From Myxococcota bacterium (lineage in GTDB: Bacteria; Myxococcota_A; SURF-8), in the NCBI GenBank assembly GCA_963674735.2, contig CAXXQS010000002.1, positions 704,001 through 768,000 of the forward strand: a stretch of 64,000 nt of DNA, written 5' to 3'. The notes below the pieces were generated by a model. That model was not told where the DNA came from, did not search any database, and saw only the letters and a program-made list of their open reading frames with translations. Each line of letters opens with the position of its first letter. The first letter of the stretch is position 1. The position numbers and the translations under genes were made by a program. This document shows, in pieces, positions 12,699 through 56,380 of this stretch.

Positions 12699-12839
12699 AT
12701 AAACAAGGGTAAATGCTCGCAGAAGAACAATCGGTTCCCGGGACAAGCCAAGTCTGACCGGGGCCGCTCGTTCAACTTCGCGGACCGGTTCGCGGCCGGA
12801 GGCGAAACATGGGGCAGGGCGTGAATGGAGGTAACCGCG

Positions 12840-15605
12840 ATGGCATCCGATGAACTTGTCACCATTCCCCGCGGCGGTGCGGCGACACACTGGAACGCCG
12901 ACCTCATCGAAGATCTGCATGCGCGTTGGAAGGAAAATCCGGCGGCGGTGTCGGAATCCTGGCAGATGTTTTTCGAAGGATTCGAACTGGCCATGTGTCC
13001 GCGCAAATGCGTGGCCGCCGACCAGGCCCGCGCCCAATCGGAAGTCAACCGCATGATCTTCGCCTACCGCTCCCTGGGCCACATGGAAGCGCGCATCGAC
13101 CCGCTGGGGCATGTCCCGCCTTCTCATCCCGATCTGGATCCGAAAGGCTTCGGTTTCAGCGATGAAGATGCAACGCGAGTGTTCGACACGGGTTCCCTCG
13201 TCGGACCGGCGCGGGCTCCACTCAAAGACATCTTGGCCCACCTGCGCGACACCTACACCCGCAGTATCGGGGTCGAGTATATGCATATACAGGAGCCGAC
13301 GGTGCGCCGTTGGTTGCAGGAACGCATGGAGCCCATACGCAACCGCCCGCCATTTCCGAAAGAAAAGCGCCTGGAGACGCTCCGCCTGCTGATCGATGCA
13401 GAGGTATTCGAAACGTTTTTACATACGTACTACCCCGGACAAAAACGTTTTTCGTTGGAGGGAGCCGAAGCGCTCATTCCCTCCATGCACGCCATCGTCG
13501 AATGGGCGCCCGAGCTGGGCGTGCAGGAAATCGTTCTCGGCATGAGCCACCGGGGTCGTCTGAACGCCCTGGCGAATATCCTCGACAAATCTTACGGCAT
13601 GATCTTTTCGGAATTCGAAGACAGCCCGGTCGACCAGGTTTGGGGAAGCGGCGACGTCAAGTACCATCGCGGCTACGCCTCGGACCACGTCAACGCCCTG
13701 GGACAGACCGTGCACCTGAGCCTGACGTCCAACCCCAGCCACCTCGAAGCGGTGGATCCGGTCGTGGAAGGCCGCGCACGCGCCAAGCAGCGCCAACACG
13801 ACGACATGGAGGAACGCCGCAAGGTCGTACCCCTGATCGTCCACGGCGACGCCAGCTTCGCCGGACAAGGTATCGTAGCGGAAACACTCAACCTTTCGCA
13901 GCTTGACGGGTATCGTACCGGCGGCACCATCCACCTCATCGTCAACAACCAGATCGGTTTCACCGCCACACCGGAAGAAGCGCGTTCGTCCCATTACGCC
14001 ACCGATGTCGCCAAAATGATCGAAGCTCCGATTTTCCATGTCAACGCCGACGATCCCGAAGCCGTTGTGTATATCAGTGAACTGGCTTTGCGTTTTCGCC
14101 AGGAATTCCACCGCGATGTGGTCCTCGATCTGGTGTGCTACCGCCGCCACGGTCACAACGAAGGCGACGATCCCGCGTTCACCAACCCGACGATGGTCAA
14201 AGCCATCAAGGCGCGCCCCAGTATTCGCCGTCTTTACATGCAGCAACTTCTGCGCGACGGACTGATTACACCCGACGACGAAAGCCGCCTCACCAGCGAG
14301 ATCAAGGCCCGGCTTAAAGCCGAACTGGACCGCGTCAAGTCGGGTGAAACCGACAAAGAACCGCATGCCTTCGAGGGTCTGTGGGCGGCCTACAATCGTC
14401 CCTACTCCATCGCCACGGTTAAAACCGGCGTTTCACTGGACGATTTGGAGAAAATGACACGTGGATTGGCCACGGTCCCGCCCGGCTTCAAAATCAATCC
14501 CAAAGTAGCTCGCCGCTTGGAGGCAATGCAGACGGCGGTCCTGGGCGGTGGCAACATCGACTGGAGCTTCGCGGAATCGCTGGCTTTCGGTTCACTGCTG
14601 GTCGAGGGCACGCCCATTCGCCTAAGTGGCCAGGATTCGGCACGCGGCACCTTCAGCCAACGACATTCCGTGTGGATGGATGCCGATAGCGGACAAGCCT
14701 ACAAACCCCTCAACCATCTATCTCCCGGCCAGTCCAAATTCTGCGTCTACAACAGCCTGCTTTCCGAAGCGGCCGTGCTGGGCTTCGATTACGGGTATTC
14801 GCTGGCCGAACCGCGCATGCTGATTCTGTGGGAAGCGCAATTCGGTGATTTCGCCAATGGTGCACAAGTCATCATCGATCAGTTCATCGTCGGCTCGGAG
14901 TCGAAATGGCAACGCACCAGCGGCCTGGTGATGCTGTTGCCTCACGGTTTCGAAGGTCAGGGCCCCGAGCATTCCAATGCCTATTTGGAACGCTACCTTC
15001 AAGCCTGCGCCGAAAACAACATCCAGGTCACCTATCCAAGCACCCCGGCTCAATACTTTCATCTGCTGCGCCGCCAGATCAAACAGCCCTTCCGGCGTCC
15101 ACTGATCGTGATGACCCCCAAAAGCCTGCTGCGCCATAAATCGGCGGTTTCGCCCATCGGCGAGCTGGCGACCGGACATTTTCACGAGATTTTGGACGAT
15201 CCCGCCGCACCGGAAAAACCGGAACGGCTTATTTTCTGCAGCGGCAAGGTCTACTACGACCTGATACAAGAACGCGAAAAGATGGACAAACCTTCCAGCG
15301 CGATTGTACGCGTCGAGCAATTCTATCCTTTCGCCGACCACCTGATGCCCGATTTCGCCGAACGCTATGCCTCGGCACGTGAGGTGCTGTGGGTGCAGGA
15401 AGAACCGCAAAACCGGGGAGGTTGGACCTTCATCAAACCGCGCATCGAAGAACATTTCAAAAAAATACCCGTAAGATATGTCGGACGTCCTGCCAGCGCC
15501 AGTCCAGCCGTGGGATCGCACAGCACGCACCGCGAAACACAGGCAGACATCGTCCGGGAAGCCTTGACACGTATCGCGCCCTCAGCGGCGCAAACCCGTT
15601 CCTGA
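12840..15605 (+). CDS. sucA: 2-oxoglutarate dehydrogenase E1
   Basis: KRFSLEG, GDVKYH, NPSHLEAVDPVVEG, HGDASFAGQG, RLSGQD, WEAQFGDFANGAQ, GQGPEHS; GGAGGT RBS. Confidence 0.97.
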   Translation: MASDELVTIPRGGAATHWNADLIEDLHARWKENPAAVSESWQMFFEGFELAMCPRKCVAADQARAQSEVNRMIFAYRSLGHMEARIDPLGHVPPSHPDLDPKGFGFSDEDATRVFDTGSLVGPARAPLKDILAHLRDTYTRSIGVEYMHIQEPTVRRWLQERMEPIRNRPPFPKEKRLETLRLLIDAEVFETFLHTYYPGQKRFSLEGAEALIPSMHAIVEWAPELGVQEIVLGMSHRGRLNALANILDKSYGMIFSEFEDSPVDQVWGSGDVKYHRGYASDHVNALGQTVHLSLTSNPSHLEAVDPVVEGRARAKQRQHDDMEERRKVVPLIVHGDASFAGQGIVAETLNLSQLDGYRTGGTIHLIVNNQIGFTATPEEARSSHYATDVAKMIEAPIFHVNADDPEAVVYISELALRFRQEFHRDVVLDLVCYRRHGHNEGDDPAFTNPTMVKAIKARPSIRRLYMQQLLRDGLITPDDESRLTSEIKARLKAELDRVKSGETDKEPHAFEGLWAAYNRPYSIATVKTGVSLDDLEKMTRGLATVPPGFKINPKVARRLEAMQTAVLGGGNIDWSFAESLAFGSLLVEGTPIRLSGQDSARGTFSQRHSVWMDADSGQAYKPLNHLSPGQSKFCVYNSLLSEAAVLGFDYGYSLAEPRMLILWEAQFGDFANGAQVIIDQFIVGSESKWQRTSGLVMLLPHGFEGQGPEHSNAYLERYLQACAENNIQVTYPSTPAQYFHLLRRQIKQPFRRPLIVMTPKSLLRHKSAVSPIGELATGHFHEILDDPAAPEKPERLIFCSGKVYYDLIQEREKMDKPSSAIVRVEQFYPFADHLMPDFAERYASAREVLWVQEEPQNRGGWTFIKPRIEEHFKKIPVRYVGRPASASPAVGSHSTHRETQADIVREALTRIAPSAAQTRS

Positions 15606-15618
15606 AGGAGTTTCGGCC

Positions 15619-16929
15619 ATGTTGATCGAGGTCAAAGTACCGGAGGTAGGGGAATCCATCACGGAAGGCACCCTGGTGGAGTGGTTACAGGCGGATGGCG
15701 CGGTCATTGTGGCCGACGATCCGCTTTTCGAGCTTGAAACCGATAAAATCACCATGGAAGTGGTTGCCCAGGAATCGGGACGCCTGAAAATCCTGGTGGA
15801 AGCCGGGGCCTTGGTGCAAATCGATCAGGTGGTCGCCCAGATCGACACCGATGCGGCGACAACCGACTCGCACCCGGCAGTGGCGACACCCGACAAGCCA
15901 CCGACGGAATCCAAAGAACAGCCGCCCCCGGAACCGGCGTCCGAGCCCGCGCCGCCCCTCGCTCCGGCAGCGGGATTCGACCAGGCGCAGGCCAAACTGG
16001 CCGACAGCGCTTCCGCGCCTTTGTCCCCGGCCGTGCGACGGCTGGTCAACGAGCAAAAGCTCGACCCCGGCAGCATCCCCGCCACGGGTCGCGACGGACG
16101 ATTGACCAAAGGCGATGTTCTGACCCACATGAAGACGGACAGCCCCGCCAAGCCTGTGCAGGCACCGACCAAAGCGCAAGCGACCGCTCCGGTCGTCGAA
16201 CCCGTGCAGCCGCCTCCGGCCTCAGACGGTCCGCGTCAAACGCGCCAGCCTCTTTCGCGCCTACGGCAACGCATCGCCGAACGACTGGTGGAAGCGCAGC
16301 AGAACGCCGCCATCCTCACCACCTTCAATGAAGTCGACATGAGTCACGTGATCGAAATGCGCAGTCGCCTGAAAGAAGGCTTTGAGAAAAAACACGGCGT
16401 GCGCCTGGGGTTTATGTCGTTTTTCGTTAAAGCGGCCGTGGACGCACTCAAAACCGTTCCGTCCCTCAACGCCCAGATCGATGGCGATACCCTCATCCAA
16501 AATCACTTCTACGACATCGGCGTGGCAGTGGGCACCGAACGGGGCCTAGTGGTACCGGTTCTGCGCGATTGCGACACCCAAAGCTTCGCCGACATCGAAA
16601 AGGGCATCGGCGAATATGCTGCGAAAGTCAAAAACAAAACCATCAATCTGCAAGACCTGTCGGGGGGCGTTTTCACCATCAGCAACGGCGGCGTCTACGG
16701 TTCCCTGATGTCGACACCGATTCTGAATCCGCCCCAAAGCGGCATTCTCGGCATGCACGCCACGAAAAAGCGGGCGGTGGTGGTGGACGACCAAATCGTA
16801 ATCCGCCCCATGATGTATCTTGCATTATCTTACGATCATCGTATTGTAGACGGAAAAGATGCCGTCACGTTCCTGAAGCGGATCGTCGAATGCATCGAAA
16901 ACCCGGAACGCATGCTTTTGGAGGCGTAG
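15619..16929 (+). CDS. sucB: Dihydrolipoamide succinyltransferase E2
   Basis: Lipoyl domain ETDK, E3-binding SPAVRRL..GRDGRLTKGDV, catalytic YDHRIVDG. Confidence 0.96.
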   Translation: MLIEVKVPEVGESITEGTLVEWLQADGAVIVADDPLFELETDKITMEVVAQESGRLKILVEAGALVQIDQVVAQIDTDAATTDSHPAVATPDKPPTESKEQPPPEPASEPAPPLAPAAGFDQAQAKLADSASAPLSPAVRRLVNEQKLDPGSIPATGRDGRLTKGDVLTHMKTDSPAKPVQAPTKAQATAPVVEPVQPPPASDGPRQTRQPLSRLRQRIAERLVEAQQNAAILTTFNEVDMSHVIEMRSRLKEGFEKKHGVRLGFMSFFVKAAVDALKTVPSLNAQIDGDTLIQNHFYDIGVAVGTERGLVVPVLRDCDTQSFADIEKGIGEYAAKVKNKTINLQDLSGGVFTISNGGVYGSLMSTPILNPPQSGILGMHATKKRAVVVDDQIVIRPMMYLALSYDHRIVDGKDAVTFLKRIVECIENPERMLLEA

Positions 16930-16932
16930 AGT

Positions 16933-18330
16933 ATGGAGCGGTTTGATCTGGTCATCATCGGAGCGGGGCCCGGCGGCTATGTGGCCGCCATTCGGGCCGG
17001 ACAGTTGGGATTGAAAACGGCGCTGGTGGAAAAAGAATCCAAACTCGGGGGCACCTGCCTGCGGGTGGGCTGCATTCCGTCGAAAGCACTGCTTGAATCG
17101 AGCGAACTCTATCACCAGGCGACGCACCGCCTCAGTGAACACGGGATCCAAGCCGACGGCCTGCGTTTCGATCTGCCCACGATGCTGGAACGCAAAACGC
17201 GTATCGTGGATGAACTGACCGCCGGGATCAAAGTTCTGATGAAGAAAAACAAGGCTATCGTGTTTGCCGGTACCGGTCGTTTGGCGGGAGACGGAAAAGT
17301 CGTCGTCAGCCAAGAAGGCGAGGAAACGACTTTACAGGCAGACGCCGTTTTGTTGGCCACGGGAAGCGTCCCGGTGGAATTGCCGAACCTGCCCTTCGAC
17401 GGTCAACACATCGTGTCATCCACGGAAGCACTGGCCTTCGAAACGGTTCCCAAACACCTGGTCGTCATCGGCGGCGGAGCCATCGGACTCGAATTGGGGA
17501 GCGTGTGGGGACGCCTCGGCGCCAAGGTGACGGTGATCGAAATGATGCCGCGGATCGCTCCTTTCGCCGACAGCCAGGCCTCGCAGATCCTGGCACGTAC
17601 GCTCAAACAACAGGGACTCGACATTCGTGTCAATACCAAGCTGCTGGGCGCGAAAGTGACGACCGATGGGGTGCAAGTCAGCGTTGAAGACGTCAAGGGT
17701 AAAACGGAAGAACTCACCGCCGACAAGCTGTTGGTGGCGGTGGGCCGCCGTCCGTTCAGCACCGGACTAGGCCTCGATGAGGTCGGCGTACACCGCGATG
17801 AAAAAGGCCGGGTGGAGGTGAACGAGCGCTTCCAGACGAGCGTCCCGGGCGTATATGCCATCGGCGACCTGGTGCGCGGCCCGATGCTGGCCCACAAAGC
17901 CGAAGAAGAAGGCGTTGCGGTAGCCGAAGTCCTGGCCGGAAAACCGGGTCATGTCAACTACGAAGCCATTCCCAATGTCATCTACACCGATCCCGAATTG
18001 GCCCAGGTGGGGCTGACCGAAGATGAAGCCAAGGCAGCCGGACACACGGTCAAAGCGGGCAAGTTTTTCTTCAAATCGAATGGTCGTGCTAAAACGATGG
18101 ATGCCACCGACGGCTTCGCCAAGGTGGTCGCCGACGCCGAAACCGACAAGGTTCTGGGTGTTCACATTGTCGGCCCGCACGCATCCGAACTGATCGCCGA
18201 AGCGGTGTTGGGGGCCGAATTCCAGGCCAGCGCCGAAGATATCGGTCGCACCACCCACGCCCATCCCACATTGTCGGAGGTGCTGAAAGAAGCCGCCCTG
18301 GCGGTGGACAAACGCGCCATTCACGGCTGA
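16933..18330 (+). CDS. lpdA: Dihydrolipoamide dehydrogenase E3
   Basis: GAGPGGYVAAI, GGTCLRVGCIPSK, HAHPTLSE. Confidence 0.96.
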   Translation: MERFDLVIIGAGPGGYVAAIRAGQLGLKTALVEKESKLGGTCLRVGCIPSKALLESSELYHQATHRLSEHGIQADGLRFDLPTMLERKTRIVDELTAGIKVLMKKNKAIVFAGTGRLAGDGKVVVSQEGEETTLQADAVLLATGSVPVELPNLPFDGQHIVSSTEALAFETVPKHLVVIGGGAIGLELGSVWGRLGAKVTVIEMMPRIAPFADSQASQILARTLKQQGLDIRVNTKLLGAKVTTDGVQVSVEDVKGKTEELTADKLLVAVGRRPFSTGLGLDEVGVHRDEKGRVEVNERFQTSVPGVYAIGDLVRGPMLAHKAEEEGVAVAEVLAGKPGHVNYEAIPNVIYTDPELAQVGLTEDEAKAAGHTVKAGKFFFKSNGRAKTMDATDGFAKVVADAETDKVLGVHIVGPHASELIAEAVLGAEFQASAEDIGRTTHAHPTLSEVLKEAALAVDKRAIHG

Positions 18331-26980: not shown

Positions 26981-27436
26981 TCAATTCGACCGTTTCTCCG
27001 GTAACTTCAGTGATTTGTGGAAGGCATCGACAAACGCATCCCGGGTCGGCGACGATTGGAACAGGAATGTCAGGAAATCGATCAAGCGCTCAGCGGTTTC
27101 ATCGCCCATCGCATGCTCCATCTTACAGGCGTCTTCGATCGCGAGTTCTTCCGGCAATTCGAGGATTTCCTGAAAAAATCGTCGGATATTGCGCTCACGC
27201 CGATGGATTTTCTCCGCGATTCCGAGACCCGCTTCGGTCAATTTGACATAGCCGTAGCGTTCATGTTCGACAAGCCCCATCCCCTCGATTTTCTTCAGGA
27301 TTCCCGAGGTGCTCGGATAGGTGACCCCCATGGCCAGAGAAATTTCCTTCACCCGCACCACGCCCCGCTCTTTTTCGATTCGGTAAATGGCTTCCAGGTA
27401 ATCTTCGATATTCGATGTTATTTTATGTTTTGACAT
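26981..27436 (-). CDS. DtxR/MntR-family metal-dependent repressor
   Basis: EDYLEAIY, RVKEI, LTEAG..IA, EDACKMEH. Confidence 0.92.
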   Translation of the reverse strand: MSKHKITSNIEDYLEAIYRIEKERGVVRVKEISLAMGVTYPSTSGILKKIEGMGLVEHERYGYVKLTEAGLGIAEKIHRRERNIRRFFQEILELPEELAIEDACKMEHAMGDETAERLIDFLTFLFQSSPTRDAFVDAFHKSLKLPEKRSN

Positions 27437-27523
27437 CTTATCGTCCCCAAACCTGATTCGAGGGTTGGCCGCGAGCAAAAAATAAAGCGGCCTTAACTTG
27501 TTTCGGCATCCCTTAATACTGCT

Positions 27524-27602: not shown

Positions 27603-29003
27603 TCAGGACAAAGGTCCTCCGGCGGGATCGGCAAAAACGCCGCTATCCGGTTTTTTCAGTTCACCTGACACATAATCCAATTCATCGAAGAACTGACGTT
27701 CATATTCCGCCGGCAGGTCTCGGGCCAGTCGAATGGCATCGGCCAACTCCGGTTGATGGCAAAGCGCGATCAGGTCGTCGTATAAGCGAACTTTTTCAGC
27801 CGACCCCAAAAGAGGAAAGAGATAGCCGTTAAGTTCGTCCAATGGCTTCCCCGCAATCAAAGGCTGCAAACGTTCCCACTCCTGCGACCCCGGCACCGGG
27901 GCCAATGGAGAAAAAATGGGCCGCGCACCCAGCATCACCATCGTAATGTAGGTACGAAACAGAAAACGGATCGTCTCGTCATCGTATGCAAATAATGAGC
28001 AGGAATGAAAACGGCCGACTTTGAACCCCACCTCGCGCAACAATCGTAACGTACGCACCGGCGCGCCGAAACGGTAAGGCTTTTTGAAGCGTTTCAACAT
28101 GATGGGGTCGGATGTCTCAAAGGGGATGGTCATCTGGTTCACTCCGGCCTTGAGCATTTTCTCGGCAATAGACGAGGTAAGCCGATTCGATTGAATCCCC
28201 ATATTGAAACTCATACGAACATCCGTTCCGGCCGCGATCATCAGGTCGAGAAACTGGTCGAGCGCGTCGGGAAACAGCATCACGTTGGGATCCCAGTTGG
28301 CAAACTGCCGGATACCAAAGCGTTTCCGAACCGCCAACAGATAATAGAGCACTTGTTTGGGTTTGAACCGCAGGGTGGGCTTCCAGCGATGATTGATACA
28401 AAAACTACATCGGTTAGAGCATCCTGTAGCCAGATTGAACAATCCGATTTCCGGCGGAGATTCGTAAAGCGACAGATCTCCGACTTCCCATTCGGCCGCC
28501 TCGTTTTTACCCTCGACGATGTCATCGGCCAGACTCGTGGCGGCATGCTCGGGCATCAATGTCGGATAAATTCCGCCGAGACGCACCGGGATGTCCGGAA
28601 AGACTTCCTTGCATACGGCGATGGCGTCGTGGGCGGTTTCCCAGTTGAAGGTCAGGCAGGCGGTTACCCATATTTCATCCGGACGCTCGCCGTCGTTCAG
28701 GGCTTTGCGAAGCTCGGACAGAGGACGCCCCAGCAGATAGGAAGGTCGCCATTCGCTGTCGACCCGATTGTTGCCCGAACGCTTGCGGCCGTACTCGGGA
28801 ACATGTGCGGGCCACTTGGATAAATACCAGCTTTTATAATGATCGTATTCCATCAGGTCGATCAGGCGCACCGAGTGCCCCTGTTTCTTCAACCAGGTTC
28901 CCAGTTTGAGTAACCCGTAGGGATAAGGCTCGGGATACTGCAGCAGTTGCCAGCGACTGACCACCTGAACCGGTGGATTGACGAAGACGATATGCTTGCC
29001 CAC
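27603..29003 (-). CDS. Cobalamin-binding radical SAM protein
   Basis: VFVNPP, PYGLLKLG, LGGIYPTLMPEH, GCSNRCSFC (CxxxCxxC), PVPGS; AGGAG RBS before GTG 29003. Confidence 0.88.
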   Translation of the reverse strand: MGKHIVFVNPPVQVVSRWQLLQYPEPYPYGLLKLGTWLKKQGHSVRLIDLMEYDHYKSWYLSKWPAHVPEYGRKRSGNNRVDSEWRPSYLLGRPLSELRKALNDGERPDEIWVTACLTFNWETAHDAIAVCKEVFPDIPVRLGGIYPTLMPEHAATSLADDIVEGKNEAAEWEVGDLSLYESPPEIGLFNLATGCSNRCSFCINHRWKPTLRFKPKQVLYYLLAVRKRFGIRQFANWDPNVMLFPDALDQFLDLMIAAGTDVRMSFNMGIQSNRLTSSIAEKMLKAGVNQMTIPFETSDPIMLKRFKKPYRFGAPVRTLRLLREVGFKVGRFHSCSLFAYDDETIRFLFRTYITMVMLGARPIFSPLAPVPGSQEWERLQPLIAGKPLDELNGYLFPLLGSAEKVRLYDDLIALCHQPELADAIRLARDLPAEYERQFFDELDYVSGELKKPDSGVFADPAGGPLS

Positions 29004-29016
29004 CTGAATCTCCTGT

Positions 29017-30048
29017 TTAGGGCGGATCAACCGGTACGTAGTACAGCGTGCCACGGGTCGAGTCACCTTGTACCAGCGATAAACGGCTCATACCCATTCG
29101 CCGCGAACCACACAGGTTGCGCCAACCATTCAAGGCTGATTTCCACTCCGATGATTCAGTGTACGCCTCAAGGCGTTCCGGCGTCAAACCATTGAGCGGA
29201 GCATTGAAGTCGAGTTCGGCACCGCTCGCAATTTCGACATATCCATCCGGTCGAAAACGTTGGATTATAACCGCGTCTCTCAAAACATTATCTTCGCACG
29301 CATGCGTTATTTCATCCATCATAGCCCAGTCTGGATAACGTGATTTCAACGAAACCAACGGCCAACGGCTGATCCGTTCGTATGTTTTAACGCGCAGTAA
29401 ACCCTGCTCGCAAAAGTCAGCCCCAATGAGATGCAGCCTCGACAAAGCGGCGGAATCGCCAAGATCGGGCGTAGTCGACAACAGGCGGTTCAACACAAAT
29501 TCCTTTTCTCGACGACACCCCGGAGGGAATTGCCAGTAAAGCTTGAACCGGCGCGCCTGCGGTCCGGCCTCCAGACCGAATAAGAGTTGAGGTGTAACAC
29601 CGGGGTCGGCCGCACGCAGAAGTGGTTCAGCCACCACCGACACCTCTGATCCGAAAGCGGCCAACATCACACGAAGCGTGGTCAAATCCAACGCCGCCGC
29701 CCCTCGCGCAAAGGCCGGAAAACTAATGGAAAAACGGTAAGGAAAAACGTCATCGCCGCGCCAGGCAAACGAATACTCCAAGCAAAACGCATAACGCGTC
29801 ATTACGCGTTCAAGGTGAGCGCAGAGATGCCGCTCCATTTTCTTGTAAGGAACAGCCACGCGACCGGAGTTGAGTCCGGCCATGTCCCGCATCGCCGTGA
29901 AATGAGCCTCCACCGACCGCAGGTCCAGGAGACGACGGTCTTGGTAGCAAGCCGGATACACCTCGCTTCTTCCCCGATCGAGATCGGGACAACCGGGAGA
30001 TGCCCGGCAGAAGACACAACGGGCCGTTGGAAGATTCGTCTTTGTCAT
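29017..30048 (-). CDS. Putative ABBA-fold prenyltransferase, LynF/TruF/PagF-like, with N-terminal Cys cluster
   Basis: Motif series CLEYS..YRF, QLLFGLE..RFKLY, LHLIGADF..G..RVKTY, terminal TLYY; N-terminal CVFC-x5-C-x13-C. Confidence 0.55.
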   Translation of the reverse strand: MTKTNLPTARCVFCRASPGCPDLDRGRSEVYPACYQDRRLLDLRSVEAHFTAMRDMAGLNSGRVAVPYKKMERHLCAHLERVMTRYAFCLEYSFAWRGDDVFPYRFSISFPAFARGAAALDLTTLRVMLAAFGSEVSVVAEPLLRAADPGVTPQLLFGLEAGPQARRFKLYWQFPPGCRREKEFVLNRLLSTTPDLGDSAALSRLHLIGADFCEQGLLRVKTYERISRWPLVSLKSRYPDWAMMDEITHACEDNVLRDAVIIQRFRPDGYVEIASGAELDFNAPLNGLTPERLEAYTESSEWKSALNGWRNLCGSRRMGMSRLSLVQGDSTRGTLYYVPVDPP

Positions 30049-52997: not shown

Positions 52998-55094
52998 TTG
53001 ACATCACCGCGCGCCTTCATTTCTCACCTCGATCGCTTTCAGGACACCGCCCGACGGTTGGGGGCGCGAGTGGTTCTTCCACGTCCGGACGGCAGCCTGC
53101 TGGCCGTATGGACACATGACGATCAACGTGCCGAGTTGATTTGGCAACCACGCGCAATTGCGGGGGAAATAACCGATGATCGTCTGGCAGGCGAGTTCGT
53201 CGTTCGGGGTTTGGACGATGAACACATCAAACAAGCTTTGGATGTCTTCGCCGACCTTCAAGCGATGCCCAATCCTTTTCCGCCGCCTATTTCCGACGAC
53301 CCGAAGCAGCCGATACAGCTCAACCGCTGGTTTGTTCACGCTCATTTAACCTCGCATCTGGAAGTAGGACGTAGCGTGTGGGGACCGTTCCGACTGGCCA
53401 AAGTAAGCGAAAACGGCCCTCAGATCATACGCTTGCATTTCGAGGGAACCCAACCTCCCCTGGTAGTCGAAATCGGAAGTCTGCAAGCCGTCGAGAACGA
53501 CCTTGCAACGAATGGGTGGCACCCCGCCCCACCGCTGGCGCTACGCGTCTGCTCGGTTCCCGATACCGCCTCGCTAAACTCACCTCTGGCGCTTAAGGTA
53601 TTGGATTATCTCCGCTTCGCCCTCGCACGCAGTTTCACACCCGATCAACCGCTACAAACGCTCGGAACGGACGATCTTCCACCGGAAACGTCCCAAACCA
53701 AGACAAGCAAGCAGCAAGCCGAATTCGATCCACGCGATGAAATCGACCCCGGTCGATTTTTTATCGGTTGGTTGCGCCCAGGTGCAACCGAGGGAATTAG
53801 CACGCTTTTCGACGATCCCGACTTGGCGATTATCCTTTATGGAGCCAATTCCTGCTGCATGAAACATCCAGTCATCGACATCGACGATCCGGGCGCAGCC
53901 GGTGCCGCCCGTTTCGATGCGCTGGCTTTGACCCTGCCGCAAAGACGGGTGGCGGTGAGCAACATGCACGAGTTGGACCTGATCCTCGGCGACGAAACCG
54001 CTTTTCGTCAGGCCCTGGAGGATGCAATCGCCAACTCGAAAGCTAGAGCCGTCGTTGTGATCGCAACTTGTGTCGTGGATATGATCGGATCGGACTTGCA
54101 CGGTATTGTGAAAATGGCTCAGGATCGCAGCGACAAGCCGGTTTTATTGTTCGAAACCCGGCCCCAGTTTGCCGAAGCCGATTATTTGGGCGATATCTGG
54201 TCAACCTTATTCGAGATTGCCGATCCTCGGGAAGTTCCGAAGAAGCGGCACATCAACGTGATCGGTCTAGCGGCCCCCGCAAGCCGTAGCGCCCGAACTC
54301 TGAGGCGGGAATTGGCCGAACTGGACCTGACGGTCAACCACTTTTTTTTCCCTTCCTTCCGATTGCAGGCGCTCAGCGAGTTTTACCGGGCGGAAACATC
54401 GATCATCGCCGACACGCTGGCCACGCGCCTCGAATTCGCCACGATCGCAACCCGACTCCCCGAAACCCATCGCCATGCTCTCGATCCGCCCTTCGGCCTA
54501 GCGGCCAGCCTGAAATTCTATCGCTACATCGCAGAGTTGTGCGGAATCGAGGAAACGAAATACAAAACCGCAGTGACGCGTATCTGGAAAGCACAAGCGA
54601 CGGAATGGGAACATCTCCAATCCCGCGCCAAATCTTTTCGCGTCCTGCTGGTAATATCGCCGGAGGATGCCGACTTCCTGCTGGACCCCGGTTCTCGTTA
54701 CGGGTTGGACCTTCCCGCCATCCTGCTTGAAATGGGCTTTTCTTTGCAGATTCTGTGTCTGCCGCAAGAGCGTCCTTCGGATGCGCTAGCCCTGCGCGAT
54801 CGCCTCGCGCAAACGATCTCAGTTCGTGTCCCAAACACGGCAAACCTGTGTTTCGACGTTCTGGCCGATGTTTCCACCTTGCCGGAATGGTTGGCCAAAT
54901 CCGACGCCTCCCTGTTATTCAGCGAATTTCCGGGAGATACCCGCGCCCTTCAAGCCGGGCTGTTGCCCTTGACGCCGCATCACTTCGAGCCGGGATTGGC
55001 CGGTGCACGCCGGACTTTGAGGCGGCTGGTGCGTCTGGCCGAAGCCTCCAAGCGGCTGCTAGGAAAAGATGTCAAAGGAGGAAAGCGCTCATGA
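52998..55094 (+). CDS. Nitrogenase component-1-like oxidoreductase, subunit A, with about 240-aa N-terminal extension
   Basis: ILYGANSCC, SNMHELDLILGDE.AFRQALEDA, VVVIATCVVDMIGSDL, INVIG, PPFGLAAS..F..IA, LLEMGF, FEPGLAGA. Confidence 0.75.
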   Translation: MTSPRAFISHLDRFQDTARRLGARVVLPRPDGSLLAVWTHDDQRAELIWQPRAIAGEITDDRLAGEFVVRGLDDEHIKQALDVFADLQAMPNPFPPPISDDPKQPIQLNRWFVHAHLTSHLEVGRSVWGPFRLAKVSENGPQIIRLHFEGTQPPLVVEIGSLQAVENDLATNGWHPAPPLALRVCSVPDTASLNSPLALKVLDYLRFALARSFTPDQPLQTLGTDDLPPETSQTKTSKQQAEFDPRDEIDPGRFFIGWLRPGATEGISTLFDDPDLAIILYGANSCCMKHPVIDIDDPGAAGAARFDALALTLPQRRVAVSNMHELDLILGDETAFRQALEDAIANSKARAVVVIATCVVDMIGSDLHGIVKMAQDRSDKPVLLFETRPQFAEADYLGDIWSTLFEIADPREVPKKRHINVIGLAAPASRSARTLRRELAELDLTVNHFFFPSFRLQALSEFYRAETSIIADTLATRLEFATIATRLPETHRHALDPPFGLAASLKFYRYIAELCGIEETKYKTAVTRIWKAQATEWEHLQSRAKSFRVLLVISPEDADFLLDPGSRYGLDLPAILLEMGFSLQILCLPQERPSDALALRDRLAQTISVRVPNTANLCFDVLADVSTLPEWLAKSDASLLFSEFPGDTRALQAGLLPLTPHHFEPGLAGARRTLRRLVRLAEASKRLLGKDVKGGKRS

Positions 55095-56380
55095 AAATCA
55101 CGCCTTACTTCCTATCCGGTATATATCTGACATTGGCGGCACGACCGGACGTCGTCGCCCTGATCGACGCCCCTCGTTGCGAACAAGACGTGGGCGGGCG
55201 GGGCGGTTTCTTGCAAGACCGCAGGGGAACGCTTTTTGGCGACGGTGCCTACGCACGCAATCGACGCGTCTATTCGCCCGGCCACTGGATGCACCCGGGG
55301 GCGAGTTCCTCTGCCGAAGACGACCTGCTGAAGACTCTCGACAGCATCGCCGAGCGACATCCGAACAACCCCATCCTGCTCGCACGCGGATACCTGTCGG
55401 CACTGGCCAACACCGATCTGGCCGGGTTGGCGAGCGAGTGGTCGGAACGGACAGGTCACCGAATCGCAACGGTGTCCCAGGGGTCGCTGGACGATGATTG
55501 GCGCGATGGCGCAGCTGCCGCGCAACTCGCACTCCTGAGCATCTACGAAAATGACGACGCCCCGCTCCGTCCCTTGATTACAGGTTGGGGACCCATGCGC
55601 ATGGAAGGCGACGAAATTGGCAACCTGATTGAATTGCAAAGGCTTTTCGCCTTGGCCACCGGGACGGATGCGGGTTTTCTGCTTGACGGTCAACTAAACG
55701 GCGCCTGGCATCGGCCCGACGCTCCGCATATCGTACTGGGTGAGACCGACCCGGAAAACGCGATTGATTCCCTGCAACTTCCCGCCCTACCTTACGGCTT
55801 GGGGGCAACGGACGCCTTCGTACGAAAGCTGGCGGAACATCGTCATGAATTCTCGAACGATCCAGCCACGTTCGATGTATCCGTCTGGGATCGTGAACGC
55901 CAAGAAACCCAAGAGCAACTCTTGCCGCTGGCTATCCGGCAACTGGCCGGACGCGGAGCGGCCGTGGTCGCGGATCCGGCCCGCGCACGGGGACTGACGC
56001 ATGCCTTGCGAGAACTGGGGCTGGAAGTCGCCCAGGTCTACCTGTTGCGAAGGATGGATGCCGTTTGTCCGGAAGCGGACGAACTCAGCGCCCTTGGAGT
56101 GCAGGTTCTGCGCGACTCGGATTATTACGATGCCCGCGCGACGCTTTTCGAGGCCGCCGAGGACGGTGCCATCGAGGTCATCGTGGGAGCGGGAATTTTT
56201 CTGGATGCGACCCGCGAAGCCGGGCTGGCTTACGTTGAAGAAGGATTTCCTTGTTATCTCGACCACTTCATCATGCCGACGCCCACAATGGGAACTTACG
56301 GACTGTTGTATCTCGCCGAACGGCTGGACCGAGCATTAGCCCAACGCGCCCACCGCAACCGGAATCAAACTCGCGGTTGA
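55091..56380 (+). CDS. Nitrogenase component-1-like oxidoreductase, subunit B
   Basis: ATGA overlap and GGAGG RBS; LIDAPRC, LPYGLGATDAFVRKLA, LAGRGAAVVADP..LRELGLEV, EEGFPCY.DH...PTMGTYG. Confidence 0.72.
   Translation: MKITPYFLSGIYLTLAARPDVVALIDAPRCEQDVGGRGGFLQDRRGTLFGDGAYARNRRVYSPGHWMHPGASSSAEDDLLKTLDSIAERHPNNPILLARGYLSALANTDLAGLASEWSERTGHRIATVSQGSLDDDWRDGAAAAQLALLSIYENDDAPLRPLITGWGPMRMEGDEIGNLIELQRLFALATGTDAGFLLDGQLNGAWHRPDAPHIVLGETDPENAIDSLQLPALPYGLGATDAFVRKLAEHRHEFSNDPATFDVSVWDRERQETQEQLLPLAIRQLAGRGAAVVADPARARGLTHALRELGLEVAQVYLLRRMDAVCPEADELSALGVQVLRDSDYYDARATLFEAAEDGAIEVIVGAGIFLDATREAGLAYVEEGFPCYLDHFIMPTPTMGTYGLLYLAERLDRALAQRAHRNRNQTRG

Follow-up and report, generated by a model that had tools for sequence, protein, structure and literature searches.

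What does a prenyltransferase-like protein do when the gene that directly follows its own codes for a radical S-adenosylmethionine (SAM) enzyme, and do the two enzymes belong to one pathway? The question is raised by a two-gene locus on the minus strand of a 64,000-nucleotide stretch of DNA from a Myxococcota bacterium (assembly GCA_963674735.2, contig CAXXQS010000002.1, positions 704,001 to 768,000; this whole stretch is called the window below), in which the upstream gene, here named X (protein P0001), is followed by the gene here named R (protein P0002). The answer that accords best with the analysis, and which is considered likely, is that X is a soluble aromatic prenyltransferase of the ABBA or prenyltransferase (PT)-barrel type, belonging to an unnamed family, and that it forms with R an obligate two-enzyme module acting on one molecule. 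The features on which the argument rests are as follows.

29017..30048, minus strand: gene X (P0001), ABBA/PT-barrel prenyltransferase-like; ATG start, 343 amino acids, stop codon included
29932..30048, minus strand: residues 1-39 of X, an extension at the N-terminus that carries C11, C14, C20 and C34; from the family alignment and the structural matches, outside the barrel
29020..29931, minus strand: predicted PT-barrel domain of X, residues 40-343; from predicted secondary structure, conservation counts and motif alignment to KgpF and IptA
27603..29003, minus strand: gene R (P0002), radical SAM enzyme whose N-terminal domain is Rossmann-like (B12-binding-like); GTG start, 466 amino acids, stop codon included
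28398..28421, minus strand: radical SAM cluster motif CxxxCxxC of R (C195, C199, C202); invariant in the 12-sequence alignment A4

The fold of X is the natural point of departure. An AlphaFold2 model built on a 78-sequence alignment of the family (A2; predicted local distance difference test, pLDDT, 93.3; predicted template modelling score 0.92) contains ten strands, which come in pairs with helices beside them, the predicted layout of the barrel being a repeat of helix-helix-strand-strand units. This corresponds to the barrel of the ABBA superfamily, which a review (PMC7973389) describes as ten antiparallel strands made from alpha-beta-beta-alpha repeats. When the model was compared with the Protein Data Bank (PDB) by Foldseek, at least 130 matches were obtained at E ≤ 1e-3; among the matches listed, all are prenyltransferases and the best is LimF (E 4.8e-9). 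Structural alignment with VIA-align gave Z values of 17.5-21.4 over the 50 entries listed, every one of them a prenyltransferase, with CymD at 21.4 (root-mean-square deviation 3.4, 287 residues aligned), 5-DMATS at 20.5, IptA at 20.1, PagF at 20.0, KgpF at 19.9, PatF and LimF both at 19.6 and the fungal enzyme FgaPT2 at 17.8. The preliminary description of this locus, made from the DNA letters alone, had staked its prenyltransferase assignment on the predicted fold being a PT barrel, and the model and both structural comparisons return exactly that fold. The designation of X as ABBA prenyltransferase-like is supported at the level of these models.

The residues that the family keeps are also of the expected kind. 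Pairwise identity within the 78 sequences is just 20-35%, and in this alignment G158, K169, Y171, D211, K221, Y223 and Y336 are invariant, while E91, S93, R105 and S107 (each in 77 of 78), D280 (76), Y337 (75), R167 (74) and R264 (69) come close to it. The conserved Arg, Lys and Tyr residues sit on predicted strands, from which their side chains would presumably point inwards. In this regard, the same review (PMC7973389) gives as traits of ABBA/DMATS enzymes that they are without the (N/D)DxxD motif, and that the diphosphate is neutralised by basic residues and hydrogen-bonded by Tyr. X has no (N/D)DxxD motif, and in the 10 family members out of 78 where one occurs it has no conserved position. 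All the strand motifs by which X had originally been singled out are present (LEYS at residue 90, RF at 105, QLLFGLE at 154, RFKLY at 167, LHLIGADF at 205, VKTY at 220 and LYY at 335), with the correction that the spacer between LEYS and RF is 11 residues long instead of 10. RxKxY and KxY in X align with the equivalent strands of both KgpF and IptA; the position of the family-invariant K221 is occupied by Lys in IptA and by Glu in KgpF, which on the sequence alignment argues slightly for a DMATS-like diphosphate site that needs no metal.

To which branch of the ABBA enzymes X stands closest is a separate matter. The A2 family profile has 12 matches in the PDB at E ≤ 10, of which 10 are ABBA prenyltransferases, the top two being 8ye0 (the KgpF structure, E 4.2e-4) and 9vtd (E 5e-4), both deposited as peptide O-prenyltransferases of the LynF/TruF/PatF family, followed by IptA, other DMATS enzymes, CymD, SmiF and PriB. 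Curated models give a different emphasis: the NCBIfam DMATS model TIGR03429 matches 7 of the 78 family members, weakly (best E 5.4e-5), the Pfam model Trp_DMAT (PF11991) matches 2 of 84 representatives at E ~0.003, below its cut-off, and the NCBIfam LynF/TruF model TIGR04445 matches a single member of the 78 at E 0.0048, far under its 140-bit cut-off. X itself is matched neither by the two DMATS models nor, at E ≤ 1, by TIGR04445, to which the whole of its own genome offers no match at E ≤ 10. Moreover, VIA-align rows no more than one Z unit apart count as tied, and by this rule CymD and PagF come out nearly level, so that X is equidistant from the bacterial DMATS and the cyanobactin F-type enzymes. 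The label 'cyanobactin-type', which the preliminary description had attached to X, is therefore not supported, given the silence of TIGR04445 on X, the lone weak match of that model in the family against seven for DMATS, and the structural tie of CymD with PagF and KgpF.

X belongs instead to a distinct and so far unnamed family without a curated model. No Pfam or NCBIfam model matches it at E ≤ 1, its single sequence has no match among PDB sequences, and a word-based homologue search returned X alone. An exhaustive phmmer search over 1.84 billion representatives, from which A2 was drawn, gave 85 homologues at E ≤ 1e-3 and 34 at E ≤ 1e-10; the family is present in 15 of 401 genomes sampled within the phylum, and a locus search with alignment A3 gave 5 genome loci and 1 metagenome locus. 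In the ESM Atlas, clusters of hypothetical proteins contain 12-41% members with prenyltransferase Pfam domains, a recognition that lies below the reliability mark, such that these are leads only. Since the family is small and has no curated model, it is invisible to standard annotation and genome-mining pipelines. One homologue, P0081 (691 amino acids), has an X-like domain (residues 427-573 matched) after some 420 N-terminal residues without a Pfam match.

Ahead of the barrel, X carries a module with four cysteines. Solved prenyltransferases align to X from about residue 40, a few of the listed rows reaching residues 15-37. The four cysteines are present together in 40 sequences out of the 41 that extend over the region, and 36 of the 78 are without the module at the first cysteine column; in other words, from the alignment, about half of the family, X included, has this extra Cys4 module. 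Residues 1-39 may be a zinc-ribbon-like accessory with a putative role in metal binding.

The evidence that ties X to R is of a different type, and it is strong. A linkage search over the window and 20 fetched loci, with a family hidden Markov model for X and P0002 for R, identified 18 strong X loci, of which 12 have R adjacent on the same strand. R lies immediately downstream in 11 of these (the window, L031, L029, L028, L008, L007, L034, L035, L038, L032 and L036) and immediately upstream in one (L012), and in several loci the stop and start codons of the two genes overlap or are closely spaced. Elsewhere, L010 has a fragment of R truncated at the contig end, L030 has a convergent and more distant B12/radical SAM gene of 833 amino acids, L011 is a short contig of 2.4 kb with X on which no R was found, and two weak X-like loci (L039 and L040) are without R. 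The pairing is duplicated within the genome of the window itself, where a second, paralogous pair (G000:C2:74521-76954; loci L006, L027 and L032) combines an X of 341 amino acids, 22% identical to that of the window, with an R of 482 amino acids, 34% identical to P0002. Furthermore, 3 of the 84 representatives are fusions of R to X with B12-binding and Radical_SAM domains: P0002 is matched at 51% identity over 449 amino acids by the R part of P0020 and at 36% by that of P0075, and the radical SAM part of P0055 is more distant.

The phyletic pattern points the same way. Among 41 genomes of relatives, five have X. R scoring above 600 bits is confined to four of these five, G000 (with two matches), G004, G006 and G009, and the 36 genomes without X have none. 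The fifth X genome, G003, has just the convergent, more distant form of R, and in G004 both genes are present and unlinked. Adjacency, fusion and phyletic pattern thus agree that homologues of X co-occur with this radical SAM family, the very association on which the first proposal of a joint pathway had been made to depend. Prediction of a complex between R and X returned a score of 0.01 against a mark of 0.32, a value that speaks neither for nor against binding.

R, for its part, is a radical SAM enzyme on the strength of its Radical_SAM domain (PF04055, E 1e-14, 55.5 bits against a cut-off of 29.5). Its match to the B12-binding domain PF02310 (30.3 bits) remains below the 32.1-bit cut-off and covers profile positions 50-116 alone. 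NCBIfam gives 14 matches at E ≤ 1, all weak and far under their cut-offs (BchE, a C-methylase model for peptides that are ribosomally synthesised and modified after translation (RiPPs), a ladderane-lipid enzyme and others), and the AprD4 family model NF033070 is not among these 14. The AprD4 structure is the best PDB match of a profile made from the 12 R sequences (A4; E 1.8e-6, with TokK, TsrM and MgmA at E 0.02-0.03). The AlphaFold2 model of R (pLDDT 90.1) gives near-equal Foldseek matches to TsrM (top, E 6e-14), AprD4 (2.1e-13) and MgmA (3.4e-13), and VIA-align places AprD4 first (Z 24.9, root-mean-square deviation 3.1, 375 residues aligned), followed by MgmA (21.0), TsrM (20.7), OxsB (20.0) and MiaB (about 18.7). 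By its model, then, R has the Rossmann-plus-TIM-barrel architecture of TsrM, MgmA and AprD4.

Whether R uses cobalamin bears directly on its chemistry. According to a 2026 review (PMC12931638), AprD4 binds no cobalamin in spite of a domain akin to the Rossmann fold. Given this, and given the sub-threshold B12 match of R, B12-dependent C-methylation remains an assumption, and the statement in the preliminary description that R is a B12 radical SAM enzyme of the kind that often C-methylates goes further than the data, the closest solved relative by both profile and structure being an enzyme without cobalamin. The genome itself (94% complete) gives ambiguous evidence on cobalamin: 12 matches to PF02310 are present, and CobS and the MetH-type cap domain PF02607 were not found in it.

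On the reading preferred here, X would bind dimethylallyl diphosphate (DMAPP) or geranyl diphosphate (GPP) through a ladder of Arg, Lys and Tyr residues (R105, R167, K169, Y171, K221, Y223, R264, Y336 and Y337), E91 would lie near the nucleophile, and X would alkylate an electron-rich acceptor. The 5'-deoxyadenosyl radical of R, with or without cobalamin, would modify that molecule too, either ahead of prenylation or following it, with methylation, dehydration or rearrangement, and C-C bond formation, on either the acceptor or the prenyl chain, as candidate reactions. Since there is no conserved peptide machinery beside X and R, a small aromatic metabolite or free amino acid (indole/Trp-like or phenol-like) is rated somewhat more likely as the acceptor than a ribosomal peptide. 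A more specific version of this proposal, offered tentatively, is that the pair and its fused forms are a dedicated bifunctional catalyst, in which one bound molecule would be converted to a radical-modified prenyl product, for example by methylation, cyclisation or rearrangement of the prenyl group or the prenylated ring, and in which the Cys4 module could serve as a docking or metal site between X and R.

Several observations weigh against a two-enzyme module. Three of the 18 strong X loci (L009, L033 and L037, from genomes G004, G229 and G183) are without an adjacent R, and G229 and G183, both of which carry X, have no R anywhere at E ≤ 1e-20, such that X can exist without R. The linkage counts also overstate the independence of the loci, since L007 and L008, L029 and L031, L034 and L035, and L036 and L038 are pairs from the same genus, and L032 is from the same genome as the window. 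For each fusion there is only one sequence, which comes from one short contig, and as the order R-then-X occurs unfused in L012, a sequencing frameshift could mimic a fusion. No curated family lies above its cut-off for X or for R, the superfamily domain PF04055 of R aside. Finally, some of the relatives' pairs sit among many radical SAM genes with sub-cut-off similarity to RiPP maturases, and such clusters favour a peptide substrate: six B12/radical SAM proteins surround X in G118, three or four are near X in G148 and G313 together with FGE-sulfatase-domain proteins, and in G229 a subtilase, a PhyH dioxygenase and a SPASM-like radical SAM enzyme lie near X.

This last point also counts in favour of the best-surviving alternative, namely that X is a cyanobactin-type peptide prenyltransferase akin to LynF, TruF and PagF, and R a cobalamin C-methyltransferase, the two decorating a ribosomal peptide or protein encoded elsewhere. 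The several radical SAM proteins of G118, G148, G313 and G229 (weakly ApyD-like or rSAM_ocin-like), with the subtilase and the FGE-like proteins, would suit such a pathway, as would the two LynF/TruF/PatF family chains at the head of the profile matches, the near full-length alignment of PagF, KgpF, LimF, DciF and PatF at Z 19.6-20.0, and the presence of the cobalamin methylases TsrM and MgmA among the best structural matches of R. Against this, bacterial Trp prenyltransferases score equally or higher (CymD above all), TIGR04445 fails on X, on its genome and on all but one weakly matching family member, K221 sides with IptA over KgpF, and R has only a sub-cut-off B12 match and a nearest solved relative that, according to PMC12931638, is without cobalamin. 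The gene context is similarly unhelpful to a peptide pathway: a Pfam scan of 45 open reading frames (ORFs) of the window revealed no YcaO, no PatA/PatG-type or subtilisin-type protease and no evident precursor, which bears out an earlier remark that none was visible near the pair, and small ORFs within 700 nucleotides of 12 modules show similarity between same-genus pairs only. A peptide-decorating pathway is accordingly regarded as rather unlikely.

Less probable still, and by a good distance, is that X is a catalytically dead PT barrel which serves R as a substrate-binding or scaffold subunit and transfers no prenyl group. The PT barrel of PatF is not known to be catalytically active, and PatF is among the structural matches of X; the tight coupling and fusions with R would suit a subunit equally well, and the Cys4 module could be a docking element. 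What speaks against a dead barrel is that the residues of the kind that ABBA enzymes use for the diphosphate (basic residues plus Tyr; PMC7973389), and the strand-1 Glu as well, are invariant or nearly so in 78 sequences of such low mutual identity, the pattern expected of selection on catalysis, and that at least two genomes have X and no R. That X and R are chance neighbours from unrelated pathways is hardly credible: no third gene is conserved with the pair in an all-against-all clustering of neighbours and three X loci have no adjacent R, but the adjacency recurs across several families of the phylum, with overlapping or nearby stops and starts in several loci, a duplicated pair in the same genome, fusion proteins and a common phyletic pattern.

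With the two-enzyme module thus the preferred account, the locus itself may be described more closely. The TAA stop of X (29019-29017) is separated from the GTG start of R at 29003 by a gap of 13 nucleotides, ACAGGAGATTCAG, and direct reading of both ORFs agrees with the two-gene minus-strand layout, 13-nucleotide gap and AGGAG element first reported for it. The signals around the two genes are the following.

29010..29014, minus strand: putative ribosome-binding site AGGAG for R; direct sequence reading, within the 13-nucleotide gap
30055..30083, minus strand: promoter-like TTGACG-17-TACCAT, ending 7 nucleotides 5' of the ATG of X; consensus scan, weak
27605..27618, minus strand: weak terminator-like hairpin over the stop codon of R; consensus scan, weak

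The two consensus scans are to be read against their backgrounds, the promoter scan giving 3 sites where 1.9 are expected in shuffles, and the hairpin scan 7 where 4.4 are expected. No Shine-Dalgarno sequence is visible at the start of X, and the promoter-like -10 element ends 7 nucleotides before the ATG; a leaderless transcript would fit these two features, weakly. A longer form of X, starting at a TTG at 30150 (377 amino acids, as in the database copy P0003), is unsupported by the homologues, comparison of which places the start point of the family some 6-10 residues ahead of the first cysteine.

Downstream of R, on the same strand and after a gap of 124 nucleotides, lies a gene for an MntR/DtxR-like repressor (27,478 down to 26,981, that is 26981-27478, minus strand), followed by an M23 endopeptidase. 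Upstream of X, in divergent orientation, is an APH-family kinase, beyond which are LarC (31255-32439, minus strand), Fur (32599-33030, plus strand) and a sigma-54 activator. Metal-related genes (the MntR/DtxR-like repressor, LarC for nickel insertion, and Fur) thus flank the pair, a context that is not conserved in the other loci. Sigma-54 activators recur near four X loci; they are a common family. The neighbours of the paralogous pair are an HlyD-type protein, a 4HBT thioesterase and a PMT_2 glycosyltransferase. The locus L028 (G118:C24:1-18000) includes a protein of 1011 amino acids with three radical SAM stretches and a B12-binding domain, all below curated cut-offs.

The rest of the window holds tricarboxylic acid cycle genes, a ribosomal RNA (rRNA) operon and assorted enzymes. 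The rRNA operon is complete (34922-40199, minus strand: 5S at 34922-35037, 23S at 35110-38110, tRNAs at 38251-38323 and 38399-38472, and 16S at 38646-40199) and explains an ORF-poor stretch of the window. On the plus strand are a 2-oxoglutarate dehydrogenase operon (12825-18330; E1, E2 and E3), with two malate/lactate dehydrogenase paralogues and an isocitrate/isopropylmalate dehydrogenase 5' of it, and two adjoining nitrogenase component 1-type (Oxidored_nitro) proteins of 698 and 541 amino acids (52998-56380), the ORFs of which overlap as called.

ABBA prenyltransferases have wide use in alkylating drugs and peptides at a late stage, and unactivated C-H bonds can be functionalised by radical SAM enzymes. 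If the two kinds of enzyme form a conserved pair, at times even a fused one, this would amount to a new biosynthetic logic and probably to a new class of prenylated products, in poorly studied uncultured bacteria; records related to these bacteria are labelled Myxococcota, Deltaproteobacteria or Desulfobacterales. The small size of the module, two genes, also makes a co-expression test easy.

How, then, does the pair stand beside systems already known? In a search of the literature, no paper turned up that describes the coupling of a B12 or radical SAM enzyme with a prenyltransferase of the ABBA or cyanobactin type, and words starting with 'prenyl' are absent from the 2026 review on B12 radical SAM enzymes. 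On the side of R, the closest solved relative is the radical SAM 1,2-diol dehydratase AprD4 (PDB 6fd2), which aligns over residues 1-437 of R and shares with it a Rossmann-like N-terminal domain plus a radical SAM core; identity is 14%, however, and AprD4 acts on an aminoglycoside without a prenyltransferase partner. The cobalamin-dependent methylases TsrM (Trp C2) and MgmA (glutamine C-methyl) are like R in fold, and R has its partial PF02310 match, whereas they score about 4 Z units under AprD4 and the B12-binding score of R stays below the Pfam cut-off.

On the side of X, the cyanobactin F-type enzymes (PagF, KgpF, LimF, PirF, DciF and PatF) have a similar fold, with 265 of 296 PagF residues aligned, and a barrel of similar size, and they provide the best PDB profile matches of the family. 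The differences are that TIGR04445 is unmatched, that the X-R locus has none of the cyanobactin gene context, that the host is of the phylum Myxococcota and not a cyanobacterium, that KgpF has Glu in the place of Lys 221, and that X has the extra Cys4 module. The bacterial DMATS-type Trp/indole enzymes (CymD, IptA, the 5-DMATS SCO7467, PriB and TleC/MpnD) likewise share the PT-barrel fold, and IptA shares the RxKxY and KxY strand motifs. Several of these bacterial enzymes are encoded in operons of just two genes, the other gene being that of a tailoring enzyme. X differs from them in sequence (13-17% identity), in its shorter barrel (about 304 amino acids against about 350), in the N-terminal Cys4 module, and in having a radical SAM enzyme as its partner. 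Among the ABBA prenyltransferases the X-R module is a novelty at the level of a family, in which both the accessory domain and the partner, here taken to be obligate, are new.

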